DNA from: Candidatus Nanoarchaeia archaeon | GTDB taxonomy: Archaea > Nanobdellota > Nanobdellia > Woesearchaeales > DATDXC01 | Direction: 5' to 3' | DNA: 64,000 nucleotides | Assembly (NCBI GenBank): GCA_035289425.1 | Contig: DATDXC010000032.1 | Location: 22,550-86,549, forward strand | Shown here: positions 2,860 through 50,395 of the stretch, in pieces | How the letters are laid out: each line of letters starts with the position of its first letter | How positions within the stretch are numbered: position 1 is the first letter of the stretch | The notes under the pieces: model-generated | Told to the model about the DNA's origin: nothing | What the model saw: the letters and a program-made list of their open reading frames with translations, nothing else | Databases searched by the model: none | Program-made: the position numbers and the translations under genes

Positions 2860-3260
2860 AGCCCCATCCTATCGTCTAGCTTTTCTGCCACTGCCTTAAG
2901 CTTTCTGAAAGACCTGAGCAAGTCTTCTTCTATCTCATCCGTTAATTCGGAAAGATTGTCCACTCTCAATAGGTATCTGTTTCCGTCCCTCAACACTAAA
3001 CCAGAGCCCATTAAAGTATTGATGTGGTGGATGATTGTCCCTCTCGTCAATTTAAGATGGTAGCCCAACTCGTCTGAGGTCAATGGGTGCCTCAGCTTTG
3101 CAGCCTTGAGAAGTTCTATGAAGATCCTAAAACAGGATTTATCCTTGTCCCTCTCGCTAAACAAGCCTAGAGAATGCCCGAACCATTGCAATTCCTGATT
3201 GATGTTTTCTGCGGGCCTTTGTATATTGATGATGGTGATCTTTCTTTTGTAATATCGCAT
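2856..3260 (-). CDS. winged-HTH transcriptional regulator (possible heat-shock regulator, divergent from grpE)
   Basis: Carries a predicted HTH 'LTSDELGYHLKLTRGTIIHHINTLMGSGLV'. It lies immediately upstream of, and divergent from, grpE-dnaK-dnaJ. Confidence 0.45.
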   Translation of the reverse strand: MRYYKRKITIINIQRPAENINQELQWFGHSLGLFSERDKDKSCFRIFIELLKAAKLRHPLTSDELGYHLKLTRGTIIHHINTLMGSGLVLRDGNRYLLRVDNLSELTDEIEEDLLRSFRKLKAVAEKLDDRMGL

Positions 3261-3379
3261 AAATCAATGAAAAGAGCTGAAATATTTAAACTTTTTGATG
3301 AAATGTATATTTCAGGATAGAAATCTTTAAATACTAGTAGATTTTACCATAATTCTGTTGACTTTAAATCAACAATGAA

Positions 3380-25260: not shown

Positions 25261-25375
25261 TAAACATGAGTTCGACACCGGGGTTCAAATCCTGGAAAAA
25301 AGCCGAACTGCGTACCACCGACTAAGTGGGCTTGAACGAAGCAAAATCCACGAAGGTGTCGACTGGCTTCTTAGT
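25261..25375. ncRNA. tRNA-like structured element of unresolved identity (possible tRNA fragment or ncRNA)
   Basis: Contains a T-arm-like 'CCGGGGTTCAAATCC' and an 8-bp inverted repeat, TCGACACC...GGTGTCGA, enclosing ~75 nt. No canonical cloverleaf could be built on either strand. Confidence 0.3.
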
Positions 25376-25445: not shown

Positions 25446-25521
25446 GGGGTTGTGGTCTAGCTTGGATTATGATACGTGGTTCGGGGCCACGTGGCCGGGA
25501 GTTCAAATCTCCCCAACCCCA
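25446..25521 (+). tRNA. tRNA-Pro (anticodon CGG)
   Basis: Acceptor GGGGTTG/CAACCCC, anticodon arm CGTGG-TTCGGGG-CCACG, T-arm GGGAG-TTCAAAT-CTCCC, discriminator A. The D-arm carries a U13-U22 mismatch. Confidence 0.75.
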
Positions 25522-33491: not shown

Positions 33492-33638
33492 CGCCGCGGC
33501 TGAGATTTGAACTCAGATGTCCAGAGGACACAAGATATCTGCGGTACTGGTAGGTTCATAAGAACTTCTGTTCTTAGCAATCATACGCCTCAGATTGTTA
33601 CTTTGAGTTTGCGCAATACCAGATTATGCGACCGCGGC
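33492..33638 (-). tRNA. tRNA gene with canonical acceptor and T arms but a ~85-nt insertion (intron-containing or disrupted); anticodon unresolved
   Basis: Acceptor GCCGCGG/CCGCGGC with a G discriminator, and T-arm CTGAG-TTCAAAT-CTCAG. The D-arm is CGCA...TGCG. The body is ~147 nt, with a possible variable-arm hairpin TGTCC-TCT-GGACA. No clean anticodon stem could be placed. Confidence 0.5.
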
Positions 33639-35455: not shown

Positions 35456-35564
35456 AGCGGGGTAGGGCAGTCAGGAGTGCCCGGGGGGCTCATAACGCTC
35501 ACTGTCGAAGCGGCAGTCGCTGTTCGAAACCCCCAGGTCGGTGGTTCAAATCCACTCCCCGCTA
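35456..35564 (+). tRNA. tRNA-Met (anticodon CAT) with ~34-nt intron at the canonical 37/38 position; initiator-like features
   Basis: Acceptor AGCGGGG/CCCCGCT gives an A1:U72 pair. D-arm is GGGC/GCCC. The anticodon stem is GGGGG/CCCCC, split by an intron at ~35495-35528, with loop CTCATAA. T-arm is GGTGG-TTCAAAT-CCACT. A1:U72 and three G:C pairs in the anticodon stem suggest an initiator. Confidence 0.8.
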
Positions 35565-46072: not shown

Positions 46073-48349
46073 TTACAGGTATGTACCTAAAAAAGATATG
46101 ATCTCCCTTACCATTCTAGGAAGAGTCTCCCCCTCAAACTTCAGAGCAGGCAGTGTGCTTTCCCTTACCAAAACATGATTTACGTTGGGATATTTGCGGA
46201 TCAGGATTGCCCCGATTTTTCGATAGTGCTCATCCAATTCCTTCATGTTCTTTCCCTGGAGAGGTTTTAGGAACTCATCATTCAACCCATAGAAGAATGC
46301 TTTAGGGATGTCTTTGATGAACCTCTGCCAATAGTGGCTGAAAAAATCAACTGAATGGCTGGCATCGGCAATCGCCTGCTGGAAGTATCTTTGGGTGTTT
46401 GGTATGAGCCAGTCAATCCTCTGAATCTCGTTCTGAAATTCTTGCATAAGTTGATGATCTTCCTTCTGAGAGGCTGATTTCAGCGACCGCAGCAAACCCT
46501 CTTTTCTTCCCTGCAGGTTACTCATGGCAAGAGCATACCTATCTTCTATGCTCTTCTTTTCCCTGCTCGGATTGGTCATTTGACCTGCGATATATTCGAC
46601 AAAATTCAAATAATCAAAGGGATTCTGCACATTATGTAAGTACTCAAAAAAGTCTATAGTGTCTTTGATGATGAGGCCAATATATTGGACTTCGTCTTCT
46701 TTGGCAACATACTCGTATTTGTGTGAGCTCCTCCAATCAGCTATTTTAAGAAGTACGTTCACAGAACAGGTGACGAGCGATGCAAATTTCTTGAAGAAAG
46801 CCTTATCTTTATTGCTGAGATAGTCGACCAATTTTCTTGGCATAGCTGTCTGCAGCCTGCTTGGAGGGGCCATGAGCACTGCCGCATCAATCCATGAACC
46901 GTGAGCAACCCTATTCAACCCTTCCAGAACTAGTTTTTTTAGTTCAGCATATTCTTGAGAGTTCAAAGCTGCTTTGTATCTCATGTCCTTCAGCATGTCA
47001 TCCGTCATCTGCGCGGCATCTAAACATGAACTTATTTCCTGTAACCTCTGGATGAGGTTGGTCATGTGATAATAGAAAGCATCTTCCACTTTTAATGAAT
47101 ACCCGGCCATGGCAAACACTGCTGATCCAGCACCAGTGCTGTGGGCAACAACTGCCACTTTCTTAGTGCCTCGTTTCCTCAAGAATTCAACCGCTTCCTG
47201 GATATACTCTGCGTTTCTGCCATACCGAAATGCCTGGCGATCCTCCCCATGCGCACTCATGTCTATGGTATAAGCGATGTACCCTTCCAGAGCAAGGAGC
47301 CGTGCCAACCCCAGTTGTGTTTCCTTGTTTCCTTGAAAACCGTGCATCAATACAACTCCTTTCTGAGGTATAGGGTTATTTTCAGGAAAGACCAATATGC
47401 CTGGTTGGGAGGTCAGCCTGGTTTCACGGATGCCTGGAAATTCTTTAGCATTTGAGGATCTCAAGTTAGAGATACCATAACTGAGTTGTGTGGCGTATTG
47501 CACCAATCTTTTTGCGTTCACTGCGTCCTGAAAGATGAAGGTATCTGTCCGCAATTTCAGTCTCTTCAGCGCTGCCAACAGGTCGTCCAAATCAGTCACC
47601 TTATTGGCTTGCAGAATGGTCAGAAATGTGATATAATGGGCAATACGGTGAAGATTTCTTGCTTCCTCTATACTGATATTCGTCTCGATGTACAAGAAAT
47701 CGTTTATATCTGTCCGGTACCTCTCTAAAAGCAGGCTCAACCGTCGTGACAGGAGCAATAATGAAGCCGGCCCCGGATTCCGATCCAGTTCTGCTATTAA
47801 CGATTGCAGCTCTGCTTCGAGTGGGTGCTCCTGCATGGAATCGGTCGCCGCAATGCCGGTCTTCTGCTCGATCTTTTTTGCCACTTGCCAACCCTTTCTC
47901 AGCTTTGTAACAATAAAACCTATAGGGGCCTGTTCCCTCGTCAGCCGTCTTTCCCTCCGATATTGAGATTTAAGGGCAGCTATGACATTGCCTTGTATAC
48001 TCTGCGCTATTTTTTCCAGTTGCTCCCTCAATCGAGAATATGAGATTGCCCTGCTTTGGCTCAAGAGATTCTGTATTGACTCGATCTTTTTGTACTCAGC
48101 CCGCTCTGCCTTCCGTTTTGCATCTTCCAACTCAGTCAAGATGAGGTCAATATTTTTGATGTATGTACTAATGAGTGTTCGAAGGTTAGCTACGTCCACA
48201 ACTTTTCTCTTGGCAAATAGTTCTATGTGCTGGGACAGCTGCCAATCCAAACGTTCTTCGGCAAGTTCTCTGCTAAAAAGATCCCGGCTGTCCAAAAGCA
48301 GACCCTGTTCTACTGAGTATTCAGAAGCTAACTCATTCTTAAGAGGCAT
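46073..48349 (-). CDS. large hypothetical protein with central alpha/beta-hydrolase domain
   Basis: Contains an 'AHSTGAGSA' GxSxG motif and 'VVLMHGFQGNKE'. Confidence 0.5.
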   Translation of the reverse strand: MPLKNELASEYSVEQGLLLDSRDLFSRELAEERLDWQLSQHIELFAKRKVVDVANLRTLISTYIKNIDLILTELEDAKRKAERAEYKKIESIQNLLSQSRAISYSRLREQLEKIAQSIQGNVIAALKSQYRRERRLTREQAPIGFIVTKLRKGWQVAKKIEQKTGIAATDSMQEHPLEAELQSLIAELDRNPGPASLLLLSRRLSLLLERYRTDINDFLYIETNISIEEARNLHRIAHYITFLTILQANKVTDLDDLLAALKRLKLRTDTFIFQDAVNAKRLVQYATQLSYGISNLRSSNAKEFPGIRETRLTSQPGILVFPENNPIPQKGVVLMHGFQGNKETQLGLARLLALEGYIAYTIDMSAHGEDRQAFRYGRNAEYIQEAVEFLRKRGTKKVAVVAHSTGAGSAVFAMAGYSLKVEDAFYYHMTNLIQRLQEISSCLDAAQMTDDMLKDMRYKAALNSQEYAELKKLVLEGLNRVAHGSWIDAAVLMAPPSRLQTAMPRKLVDYLSNKDKAFFKKFASLVTCSVNVLLKIADWRSSHKYEYVAKEDEVQYIGLIIKDTIDFFEYLHNVQNPFDYLNFVEYIAGQMTNPSREKKSIEDRYALAMSNLQGRKEGLLRSLKSASQKEDHQLMQEFQNEIQRIDWLIPNTQRYFQQAIADASHSVDFFSHYWQRFIKDIPKAFFYGLNDEFLKPLQGKNMKELDEHYRKIGAILIRKYPNVNHVLVRESTLPALKFEGETLPRMVREIISFLGTYL

Positions 48350-48384
48350 AGAACTGCAATTGAGTATCTGTATATAAAAAGGTT

Positions 48385-48409
48385 ATGCGCCGGCCGGGAT
48401 TCGAACCCG
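48385..48409 (-). repeat. partial duplicate of the tRNA-Gly 3' end (intron-less T-arm plus acceptor 3' strand)
   Basis: In tRNA orientation it reads 'CCGGG-TTCGAAT-CCCGG-CCGGCGC-A'. It is identical to the 3' part of the tRNA-Gly gene at 49209-49229 but lacks that gene's 29-nt T-arm insert. Confidence 0.6.
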
Positions 48410-48461
48410 GATAGCAAGTTTTAAATATTTTCCTTCTTTTTCTAATCCCACTCGTTGTACT

Positions 48462-49241
48462 ATGATTAAAAAAAGACTAAGTCTTTCGGAAAAGAATTAC
48501 ATCAGAGAGATGGTTCAATCCGGCCTCTCGTTGAAGAATATTGCAAACCGCACAGGAAAAAGCAAAACAACTGTTTACTACTACTTTAGAGACATAAGGG
48601 GTAGAACTATCCTGCCCATAACAATAAATGAGGAGAAAAGTGAGCTAGTGGGTGAGTTTTTAGGGATAGTTGCTGGTGATGGCTGCCTGAATAAAACTAA
48701 ACAGCACCATTATAGAGTCTATCTTTTCTTCAATAAGAAGGAGCACGCATATGTCAGAGAGCTGTATACTGCTCTTTTTTATGAGCTTTTCAAGAAGCAG
48801 CCTTCCCTATTTGACCGGAAAGAGAGGGATATATTTATCTTATATTTCTGCTCCAAAGAGATTTATTTTTTTGTCAAGAGGTATCTTACGTGGGATATGA
48901 CTACCAGAAAGAGCCATTCGGTGCACCTAAAATCAAGGAACCACACTACCCGATTTAAGATTGGTTTCTTAAGGGGGCTAATCGATAGTGATGGTTATTT
49001 GTCCAACGACAGAATTGTGTTCAGTACGAGTTCTATGAAATTGGCTGCTGATATTATGCAATTCCTAGATGAATTACATATCAGTTATGGTTTTCACATC
49101 TATAAAGAAAAGAGAGAAAACAGGGTGGATATGCAACACATCACCATCAAGAGAAGAGACCGGAACAAATTTTTGAAGGTCATAAAACCCCGCGAAAGAA
49201 AAAATATATGCGCCGGCCGGGATTCGAATTTCCGGACTTAA
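48462..49241 (+). CDS. LAGLIDADG homing endonuclease (double-motif) with N-terminal HTH
   Basis: Motif 1 'LGIVAGDGCL' and motif 2 'LRGLIDSDGYL', with an N-terminal HTH 'SLKNIANRTGKSKTTVYYYF'. Its last 11 codons are antisense to the 3' end of the tRNA-Gly gene. Confidence 0.8.
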   Translation: MIKKRLSLSEKNYIREMVQSGLSLKNIANRTGKSKTTVYYYFRDIRGRTILPITINEEKSELVGEFLGIVAGDGCLNKTKQHHYRVYLFFNKKEHAYVRELYTALFYELFKKQPSLFDRKERDIFILYFCSKEIYFFVKRYLTWDMTTRKSHSVHLKSRNHTTRFKIGFLRGLIDSDGYLSNDRIVFSTSSMKLAADIMQFLDELHISYGFHIYKEKRENRVDMQHITIKRRDRNKFLKVIKPRERKNICAGRDSNFRT

Positions 49242-49340
49242 GGAGAACCTTAAATCTCCCGGATAAACGGCTTGGAAGGCCATTGTCATTTACGGCAACT
49301 TTTACCCATGTAAAAGCTGTAGCCATTAGACCACCAGCGC
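49209..49340 (-). tRNA. tRNA-Gly (anticodon TCC) with two putative non-canonical introns (D-loop ~34 nt; T-arm 29 nt between positions 53/54)
   Basis: Acceptor GCGCTGG/CCGGCGC with an A discriminator, and anticodon arm ATGGC-CTTCCAA-GCCGT. T-stem 5' CCGGG is separated from TTCGAAT-CCCGG by a 29-nt insert containing a GGAGAACC...TCTCC hairpin. The D-stem GTCT/TGAC is separated by a 34-nt insert. Confidence 0.6.
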
Positions 49341-49366
49341 ATGAAAGCACAGAATTAAAGTTTCGT

Positions 49367-50395
49367 TTATAAATGTTTCCTGATATTTTTTAGGAACTGT
49401 TCAAAATGTTCTTTCTTCACCGATGCGCCACAAGCATACTCATGACCACCTCCGTAGCCCTCCACATCTTTCAGGGCTTCCTGGAGGATAGAAAGCAATG
49501 GTTTTCCATAGCGCAAGCTCATCTTCACTGCATCATTCTTTTGCCTGCCCACAATGATCAGCTTGTCAGGGAATTTGTACATCAGCTCATTGGCCAGATC
49601 TCCGCTAAAGCTGGTCTTGCTCGACGGATAGATGTAACACAATAAGGGATCTTTTTTGACGTGCTTCTCAGCCTCTTTGATAAGTTCTGCATATTCTTTG
49701 TTTACCCGGAGAAATTTCCGGTAGAGGAATGTTCCCTGCGGCGTTGTCTGATCCAGAATTTCTGAAGGTGATTGGATCCGTGTTAGAATCTTATAGCATT
49801 TTTTTATATCTTGGGTGTCTCCTTTCAGGATGAATGCAAATATGCGTGTTAAGGTGCCGAGTTTGGAGTTATGCAGGATAGCTCCTGGATCTTTAGAACC
49901 TATCTTTACCAAGTCAGGGTACTGCTCTTTAAATACGGGCATAAAATCAGGGTAATACCAATCACCAGTGCAGCCGACTGCAGCAATCCACAGATCCTGC
50001 TTGACAACCTGATAACACAAGTAGGTAGCGGGTGTGTTGTCATGCGGCGCCTTGATGCGAGGATTAAATATCTTAAGTCCATGCAGTGGAATTGGCTGGT
50101 GGTGGTCGATCCATACAACAGGCACCTTTACCTTATCGATGAATTCCTGGTCAACCACTGCCAGATCGAGTATAAATATCTTGTCCGGGCTGTATTCTGC
50201 CACCTTCGGAAGGAATTTTTCATCTACCGTGGGAGTAGTGCGCTTTACCACAATCCCGTTGCCCTCCTTTTTATAGCGATAGAAAAGAAGAAATGAACAC
50301 ATGCCATCCGGATCATCATGGAAAAAATAGAGCGGATTCTGGCAATTATCAAGTTCTTCCTTTATTGTTTTGACTTCATCATCAGTTAAAGGCAT
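49367..50395 (-). CDS. DHH-family phosphoesterase (RecJ/NrnA-like)
   Basis: Has 'DPDGMCS' and 'IDHHQP' DHH motifs. Confidence 0.7.
   Translation of the reverse strand: MPLTDDEVKTIKEELDNCQNPLYFFHDDPDGMCSFLLFYRYKKEGNGIVVKRTTPTVDEKFLPKVAEYSPDKIFILDLAVVDQEFIDKVKVPVVWIDHHQPIPLHGLKIFNPRIKAPHDNTPATYLCYQVVKQDLWIAAVGCTGDWYYPDFMPVFKEQYPDLVKIGSKDPGAILHNSKLGTLTRIFAFILKGDTQDIKKCYKILTRIQSPSEILDQTTPQGTFLYRKFLRVNKEYAELIKEAEKHVKKDPLLCYIYPSSKTSFSGDLANELMYKFPDKLIIVGRQKNDAVKMSLRYGKPLLSILQEALKDVEGYGGGHEYACGASVKKEHFEQFLKNIRKHL

Follow-up and report, generated by a model that had tools for sequence, protein, structure and literature searches.

The 64-kb stretch of DNA analysed here (contig DATDXC010000032.1, hereafter the window) carries at 49340..49209, on the minus strand, a tRNA-Gly(UCC) gene that is very probably functional and belongs to a Woesearchaeota-like DPANN archaeon. 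The gene is split by a 31-nt intron at position 20a/21 and a 29-nt intron at position 53/54, each set within a motif of the bulge-helix-bulge (BHB) type. The 53/54 intron is genetically linked to an adjacent free-standing LAGLIDADG gene. A first-pass annotation of the window had proposed a tRNA-Gly with two introns at non-canonical positions, and our analysis bears this out down to the exact coordinates. The minus strand of 49209-49340 runs GCGCTGG...CCGGCGCA and is read exon by exon as GCGCUGGUGGUCUAAUGGCU / ACAGC...CGUAA / AUGACAAUGGCCUUCCAAGCCGUUUAUCCGGG / AGAUU...CGGAAA / UUCGAAUCCCGGCCGGCGCA, which gives the following parts.

49209..49340, minus strand: tRNA-Gly(UCC) gene, a 132-nt precursor body of three exons and two introns, CCA not encoded (ARAGORN on the spliced product; orthologues at the same site after a DHH gene)
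49321..49340, minus strand: exon 1, tRNA positions 1-20a, with the acceptor 5' strand, the D-stem 5' strand and the greater part of the D-loop, GCGCUGGUGGUCUAAUGGCU (spliced orthologue alignment; BHB register)
49290..49320, minus strand: intron 1, 31 nt, D-loop position 20a/21, precursor 21-51 (BHB; site shared by at least 10 further genes, whose hairpins differ in sequence)
49258..49289, minus strand: exon 2, positions 21-53, with the D-stem 3' strand, the anticodon arm (UCC), a 4-nt variable loop and the T-stem 5' strand CCGGG (ARAGORN; orthologue alignment)
49229..49257, minus strand: intron 2, 29 nt, position 53/54, precursor 84-112 (BHB; covariation in 25 distinct genes)
49209..49228, minus strand: exon 3, positions 54-73, with the T-loop UUCGAAU, the T-stem 3' strand, the acceptor 3' strand and discriminator A (ARAGORN; orthologue alignment)

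Excision of precursor positions 21-51 and 84-112 yielded a 72-nt cloverleaf that ARAGORN called as tRNA-Gly(tcc). Other splice forms failed, save one with a 29-nt intron 1, whose product ARAGORN also accepts. The mature tRNA has a 7-bp acceptor stem with one U.G pair, the D-loop AAUGGCUA, the anticodon loop CUUCCAA on a 5-bp stem, a 4-nt variable loop, the T-arm CCGGG-UUCGAAU-CCCGG and discriminator A. Its identity as tRNA-Gly(UCC) is given by the UCC in a 7-nt loop, the 7-bp acceptor stem, the T-loop UUCGAAU and at least 60 orthologues with compensatory changes in the acceptor stem. The 132-nt body would be transcribed from a TATA-like box 25 nt upstream, and the archaeal splicing endonuclease (EndA) would cut after the second base of each bulge; an RNA ligase of the RtcB type would then join the three exons into the 72-nt tRNA, to which CCA would be added.

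Unspliced, the locus escapes standard tools. ARAGORN reported no tRNA there (its window-wide matches, both elsewhere, were a tRNA-Gln and a tRNA-Pro only), and Rfam reported none at the gathering score or, on the surrounding 351 nt, at E<=10. Permissive Rfam matches to HTH-XRE and ceN102 (E about 1-6) were put down to chance, and a spurious tRNA-Gln with a 9-nt intron, returned by ARAGORN -i on the half-spliced form, was disregarded. As a chance control we searched both strands blind over the full length of the window: all BHB-like candidates with a 4/4 central helix and an inner helix of at least 4 bp were spliced and the products passed to ARAGORN. Across 1,502 tiles and 10,156 spliced candidates, a tRNA was called at the 49209..49340 locus only, and the pattern is therefore far beyond chance.

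Splice junctions and orthologues of the tRNA-Gly gene

Inspection of the junctions revealed a BHB motif at both. With central-helix strands in square brackets, bulges in lower case and the predicted cut as a caret, intron 1 reads [AUGG] cu^a ... [CCGU] aa^a, with all four central pairs formed (A15-U49, U16.G48, G17-C47 and G18-C46) and a 10-bp inner hairpin, CAGCUUUUAC/GUAAAAGUUG, closed by the loop AUGG. Intron 2 reads [UCCG] gg^a ... [CGGA] aa^u, again with 4/4 central-helix pairs, and its 9-bp inner hairpin, GAUUUAAGG/CCUUAAGUC, has the 4-nt loop UUCU. Both thus show the canonical arrangement of a 4-bp central helix and two 3-nt bulges. The first-pass annotation had placed a 29-nt insert between CCGGG and TTCGAAT, exactly as found (49257..49229), and had quoted its hairpin as GGAGAACC...TCTCC; the hairpin exists, but this version was read on the plus strand and consists partly of exon bases. 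On folding, the precursor reached a minimum free energy (MFE) of -53.4 kcal/mol (z = -4.6 against shuffles) and kept the acceptor, D and anticodon stems together with the intron-1 BHB.

The splice sites were compared with those of related genomes. A DHH gene followed by tRNA-Gly(UCC) is an order common to many of them, and in the closest relative (L007/L014, DHH protein 68% identical) an intron-less tRNA-Gly(UCC) lies at the same place, with the D-loop AAUGGCUA followed by UGAY and the same T-arm; the 72-nt product aligns with it base for base. This gene sets the mature D-region at GGCUA-UGAY, from which a length of 31 nt, not 29, follows for intron 1. A D-loop insert had been proposed at about 34 nt; the insert is real, but its length is 31 nt, at 49320..49290. 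Our first BHB reading, with both introns at 29 nt, was likewise dropped for intron 1 on account of the orthologue D-loops.

A 29-nt intron 1 (precursor 22-50), giving a 74-nt tRNA with the 10-nt D-loop AAUGGCUAAA, nevertheless has features to recommend it: a 4-bp central helix from U16.G48 to C19-G45, 3-nt bulges, a 9-bp hairpin, a product that ARAGORN accepts and an MFE fold that pairs C19-G45. Against it, in all orthologues, whether a D-loop intron is present or not, the D-loop is the 8-nt AAUGGCUA and UGAY comes straight after it, and 10/10 D-loop introns at this site fit the 31-nt type, [AUGG] cu^a ... [CCRU] aa^a. We therefore regard the 29-nt register as quite improbable. The mature sequence would distinguish the two, being GGCUAUGAC for 31 nt and GGCUAAAUGAC for 29 nt. 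The site 20a/21 is equivalent to 21/22, an A flanking both junctions.

The Woesearchaeota-like orthologues at the same syntenic site carry from zero to three introns at four recurrent sites (20a/21, 37/38, 53/54 and 59/60), with 26 further orthologues interrupted at one or more of these. The sets include 37/38 alone, 59/60 alone, 37/38 with 59/60, 53/54 with 59/60, 20a/21 with 37/38, 20a/21 with 59/60, and three introns in L024 and L082. Although the first-pass annotation had called two introns in one short tRNA unusual, the arrangement is not so for this lineage; in the window's gene the canonical 37/38 site is empty. A four-intron tRNA-Gly in L114/L146, suggested by the aligner, was rejected since its D-arm does not close.

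In the register that gives the conserved mature sequence, 31/33 orthologue introns formed a perfect 4-bp central helix, compared with 2.6% at shifted positions of the same lengths, and the register rule is calibrated because it reproduced the textbook 37/38 site. For the 53/54 intron in 25 distinct genes, 99/100 central-helix pairs were formed and 122/125 of the first five inner-helix positions were paired, with several compensatory pair types. Here the intron strand covaries with the T-stem (UCCG/CGGA, UCUG/CAGA, UCGG/CCGA and UUCG/CGAA). At least 10 genes share the site of the D-loop intron; their hairpin sequences are unrelated, and yet 100% of pairs are formed in the central helix (H) and the first four inner-helix positions (h'1-4).

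Several points weigh against the functional two-intron gene. The outer helices are short, 2 bp for intron 1 (A14-U53 and U13.G54) and 1 bp for intron 2 (A77-U114), and because of this weakness both motifs are relaxed rather than strict hBHBh'; such motifs would need a splicing endonuclease of broad specificity. The MFE structure of the isolated precursor lacks the intron-2 BHB, in preference for stacking of the T-stem on the intron hairpin. For intron 1 the boundary is ambiguous by one base, and the 29-nt alternative also fits a BHB. Splicing is predicted here from structure and conservation, and with 64 kb of the genome open to inspection a second tRNA-Gly(UCC) could lie elsewhere.

The last point belongs to a rival explanation, that the locus is a decaying tRNA pseudogene with junk inserts and the functional tRNA-Gly(UCC) is encoded elsewhere. 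The silence of the tRNA finders and Rfam would agree with it, as would the mobile-element gene and the duplicated tRNA fragment that adjoin the locus. Yet all stems of the spliced product are intact, both inserts sit in precise BHB motifs, and the same positions are occupied in dozens of orthologues with covarying helices. The gene also sits where tRNA-Gly(UCC) is found by conserved synteny in this lineage, with these elements around it:

49367..50395, minus strand: DHH/DHHA1 phosphoesterase gene, directly upstream of the tRNA, the synteny anchor
49366..49373, minus strand: TATA-like box TTTATAAA, 25 nt upstream of tRNA position 1 and overlapping the DHH stop codon; putative promoter
49195..49208, minus strand: T-rich tract UAUAUUUUUUCUUU, directly after the discriminator; likely an archaeal terminator

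The TTTATAAA box also precedes the orthologues in L007, L009 and L011. Furthermore, several metagenomes contain near-identical contigs; the tRNA region showed zero mismatches in five independently assembled metagenome contigs that span the whole gene, and a sixth, ending inside it, matches over the first 83 nt. A pseudogene is thus very unlikely, and we give it hardly any weight.

A LAGLIDADG gene at the tRNA 3' end

On the opposite strand, an open reading frame (ORF) converges on the tRNA gene.

48462..49241, plus strand: ORF of 259 aa with HTH_38 and double-motif LAGLIDADG, convergent on the tRNA (Pfam; family alignment; structural relatives)

The protein combines an N-terminal helix-turn-helix (HTH; HTH_38/HTH_7) with LAGLIDADG domains, scoring 45.6 bits against Pfam LAGLIDADG_3 (cut-off 22.5) and 25.4 against Hom_end (cut-off 21.1). 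Its motifs are LGIVAGDG and LIDSDG, in which the catalytic aspartates D73 and D177 are invariant in 35 sequences. The family profile matches I-DmoI over residues 63-239, covering both halves, and also PI-PfuI. We refer to the gene as the homing endonuclease gene (HEG). Close LAGLIDADG relatives in viral contigs were not found, the only matches being partial ones at 27-29%.

An overlap of the tRNA with an endonuclease gene had been reported, and the ORF does extend, in antisense, across exon 3 and into 13 nt of intron 2. Conservation of the protein stops near ...IKPRERKN, the last ~11 codons being antisense exon 3 and intron 2, and the homologue tails CAGRDSNF, MRRPGFEF and NASAGIR are likewise the antisense tRNA-Gly 3' end in different frames. 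Because the frames vary, the overlap is incidental read-through; on the evidence of the same tails, the HTH-LAGLIDADG family always abuts tRNA-Gly.

We then compared four genome loci and 79 metagenome loci for adjacency. Homologues of at least 40% identity converged on the 3' end of tRNA-Gly(UCC) in every locus with enough downstream DNA, except L137, where the tRNA-Gly is on the same strand as the HEG, and L131, where ARAGORN found no tRNA. Among low-scoring loci, mostly of 30-36% identity, ARAGORN placed a tRNA gene next to the ORF end in 26/30, mostly within a few to ~30 nt. The tRNAs beside these distant homologues (L141-L176, for example L145 at 3225-3303, L148, L149, L158, L161 and L166) were mostly Arg-GCG, with Ala, Cys, Pro, Ser, Trp and some Gly. 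The whole HTH-LAGLIDADG family therefore appears to be associated with tRNA genes. The HEG occurs patchily: it is missing from the five species-level relatives that are closest by DHH (62-68%) and present in genomes at DHH 46-54%.

Presence of the HEG was associated with the 53/54 intron. Counts for the two groups, with the consensus T-arm defined as CCGGG-TTCRAAT-CCCGG, were as follows.

HEG-linked, 39 distinct genes: 53/54 intron 28; 59/60 intron only 0; T-arm uninterrupted 11, of which consensus 0
HEG-less, 25 genes (DHH-anchored set): 53/54 intron 2; 59/60 intron only 10; T-arm uninterrupted 13, of which consensus 7

Fisher tests gave p = 4e-7 for the 53/54 intron and p = 0.006 for the consensus T-arm, neither corrected for phylogeny. 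The 53/54 intron occurs without the HEG in L015 and L024, and the HEG without this intron in 11 loci. In HEG-less genomes the T-loop of tRNA-Gly(UCC) often contains instead a BHB intron of 21-64 nt at 59/60, [UUCG] aa^a ... [CGAA] ag^u (L017, L020, L021, L026, L027, L029, L036, L054, L068 and L082).

On the far side of the LAGLIDADG gene we detected a second copy of the tRNA end.

48384..48413, minus strand: intron-less remnant of the tRNA-Gly 3' end, TATCCGGG followed directly by TTCGAATCCCGGCCGGCGCA plus TA; an exact 28-nt copy of the spliced 3' end and 2 matching bases

It lies 49 nt before the HEG start, between the HEG and a 758-aa hydrolase-like ORF, and is a direct repeat of the resident 3' part; the HEG is therefore bracketed by direct repeats. 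The same intron-less remnant is present in L103 (2414-2433). In L105 (83-102) and L111 (2416-2435) the remnants include the intron 3' end, with small indels at the junction, and L114 (2403-2422) and L121 (338-357) hold decayed tRNA 3' copies. The remnants start 8 nt 5' of the 53/54 site or carry small indels at that junction. We considered the distal copy (48386-48405) as exon 3 of a giant HEG-containing intron and rejected this, since the preceding AUCC gg^u cannot pair with UCCG and no BHB forms. A different order was seen in L122, where a decayed tRNA 3' fragment (1722-1741) lies between the end of the LAGLIDADG gene and an intact intron-less tRNA-Gly(UCC) (1806-1877), opposite to the window; this suggests repeated rearrangement at the junction.

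Readings of the link between endonuclease and intron

The association itself is observed; for the mechanism we infer one candidate. An active free-standing homing endonuclease would target the uninterrupted T-arm of tRNA-Gly(UCC), and the 29-nt 53/54 BHB intron, by splitting the DNA target, would make the host allele immune to the HEG. Gene conversion into intron-less alleles would then carry the intron along with the HEG, so that it hitch-hikes, and the intron-less 3' remnant would be the displaced end of the recipient or the right-hand homology arm. Homing is the most economical inference from the adjacency, the enrichment, the lack of uninterrupted consensus T-arms, the remnants and the conserved catalytic residues; we hold it tentatively, at somewhat less than an even chance. 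The data suggest, and do not prove, a link between HEG and BHB intron that resembles 'collaborative homing'. Genes with one partner alone, 11 of them HEG-linked but lacking the intron and two with the intron but no HEG, would fit a cycle of gain and decay, and fit a null reading equally.

That null reading holds that the LAGLIDADG gene is an old syntenic neighbour or passive passenger, and that its co-occurrence with the 53/54 intron reflects the shared ancestry of a sub-clade with no functional or mobility link. It draws on the lack of a phylogenetic correction in the association statistics, on the similar identities of HEG (44-57%) and DHH (46-54%) between genomes, and on the genes that have only one of the two partners; moreover, cleavage by the endonuclease is a prediction. 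Opposed to this are the absence of the HEG from the five closest DHH relatives and its presence in more distant genomes, the sub-families that abut other tRNA genes (Arg, Ala, Cys, Pro and others), which synteny can hardly explain, and the invariance of both catalytic aspartates. Duplicated tRNA 3' fragments also flank the HEG in at least six loci, and the uninterrupted consensus T-arm occurs in 0/39 HEG-linked genes and 7/25 HEG-less ones. Shared ancestry may account for the pattern, although we judge this to fall short of probable.

The remnants allow a further explanation, in which the ~0.8-kb segment between the tRNA 3' copies is what is left of a classical integrase-type element inserted in the 3' end of tRNA-Gly, its att core duplicated and the LAGLIDADG gene its cargo. 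A 28-30-nt direct repeat of the tRNA 3' end does bracket the segment, and integration into archaeal tRNA genes with intron gain and stray fragments has been proposed earlier (PMC3293823). No recombinase or integrase was found between the repeats, however: in the single ORF Pfam recognises HTH_38/HTH_7 and LAGLIDADG domains, but none for recombinase catalysis. The compact layout of tRNA, convergent HEG, ~55-85 nt and remnant also recurs in distant loci, and this speaks for the HEG cassette itself as the unit. An integrase-type origin is thus unlikely.

Surroundings, related systems and significance

The DHH phosphoesterase gene ends 27 nt upstream of the tRNA on the same strand, with an Nre gene beyond it. 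The best protein matches of the surrounding genes are metagenome-assembled genomes (MAGs) labelled Nanoarchaeia, Nanoarchaeota or Woesearchaeota, in agreement with the DPANN lineage guessed in the first-pass annotation. Downstream, the 758-aa ORF (46073-48349, minus strand), with a weak central alpha/beta-hydrolase match, lies between the tRNA remnant and conserved acyltransferase and glycosyltransferase genes. Its slot is filled in relatives by a 100-aa zinc-finger protein (L007), a 274-aa ORF (L011) or an SMC gene (L013), and the stretch that directly follows tRNA-Gly varies among relatives.

The window holds other interrupted tRNA genes. A second hidden one, tRNA-Ser(GCU) at 33492-33638 (minus strand), is of class II with a long variable arm and discriminator G, and both ARAGORN and Rfam miss it. 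Its first intron is 26 nt long at 29/30, [GCGC] aa^a ... [GCGU] au^g, and its second 38 nt at 37/38, [UUGC] ua^a ... [GCAG] au^a; given the spliced 82-nt sequence with the discriminator G omitted, ARAGORN returned tRNA-Ser(gct), listed as 83 bases. An initiator-type tRNA-Met at 35456-35564 (plus strand), with A1-U72, a GGGGG/CCCCC anticodon stem and an anticodon-loop intron of ~35 nt, is matched by Rfam at 45.8 bits (gathering score) and missed by ARAGORN in default mode. A T-arm-like motif, CCGGGGTTCAAATCCTGG, at 25270-25300 (plus strand), ~150 nt upstream of tRNA-Pro (25446-25521), has no acceptor or other tRNA parts nearby; a BHB-guided and ARAGORN search there gave no tRNA, and the motif is probably due to chance.

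The tRNA gene is of a kind already known. Archaeal tRNA introns, several per gene and at non-canonical positions that include 20/21, 53/54 and 59/60, have been described (PMC4090602), so that the first-pass annotation's mention of such positions in archaea finds support in a published list on which both 20/21 and 53/54 appear. For DPANN genomes, one Woesearchaeota MAG among them, a large number of disrupted tRNA genes and gaps in the predicted tRNA sets have been reported, and DPANN EndAs with an L3 loop accompany the disrupted genes (PMC5829648). The multi-intron tRNAs of Thermoproteales (such as Pyrobaculum tRNA-Pro with 25/26, 37/38 and 56/57) and of Nanoarchaeota and other DPANN are alike in having short BHB introns, several per gene; orthologues of tRNA-Gly(UCC) with zero to three introns at four sites were not found described in the literature searched. 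The tRNA-Gly locus illustrates why DPANN genomes seem short of tRNAs, since ARAGORN and Rfam miss both it and the two-intron tRNA-Ser(GCU). How archaeal tRNA introns are gained and move has been described as unknown (PMC4090602), and the orthologue series is a clean natural record of gain and loss at one locus, with zero to three introns at four fixed sites and covarying BHB helices.

The linked LAGLIDADG family is the wider interest of the locus and the part worth an experiment. The closest parallel to a homing link is phage collaborative or trans homing (F-CphI with psbA; T4 MobE with nrdB), where a free-standing endonuclease likewise lies beside a gene with an endonuclease-less intron, the two co-occur, and the intron interrupts a conserved target, as it would here (PMC2790892). 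Those introns are of group I, splice themselves and interrupt protein genes of phages; the present one is of the BHB type, would be spliced by proteins and lies in a cellular tRNA gene, next to a putative enzyme of the LAGLIDADG class that bears an HTH at its N-terminus. In Caldiarchaeum subterraneum, the tRNA-Thr(GGU) locus also has a mobile-element gene beside an intron-containing tRNA and a partial tRNA copy ~1-2 kb away, and has been interpreted as intron gain through element integration (PMC3293823). That locus involves a DNA recombinase and a 5' fragment, in contrast to the LAGLIDADG gene and 3' end described here, which recur across many genomes. Endonucleases of the I-DmoI type in archaeal rRNA BHB introns share the protein fold (I-DmoI and PI-PfuI being the best solved relatives) and the intron class; their gene lies inside the rRNA intron, whereas the present one is placed outside, on the strand opposite to the tRNA gene, and the intron measures 29 nt only. 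We found no paper on the HTH-LAGLIDADG family or on the HEG-intron association in the literature searched, which does not prove that they are new.

With its ties to tRNA 3' ends, its enrichment next to one particular intron and its absence beside any uninterrupted consensus target, the LAGLIDADG family turns the question of how such introns are gained and move into a simple cleavage experiment. If the homing reading is true, it would let a protein-spliced tRNA intron of archaea spread at the level of DNA, in a BHB counterpart of phage collaborative homing, and the sister sub-families would act likewise at other tRNA genes.

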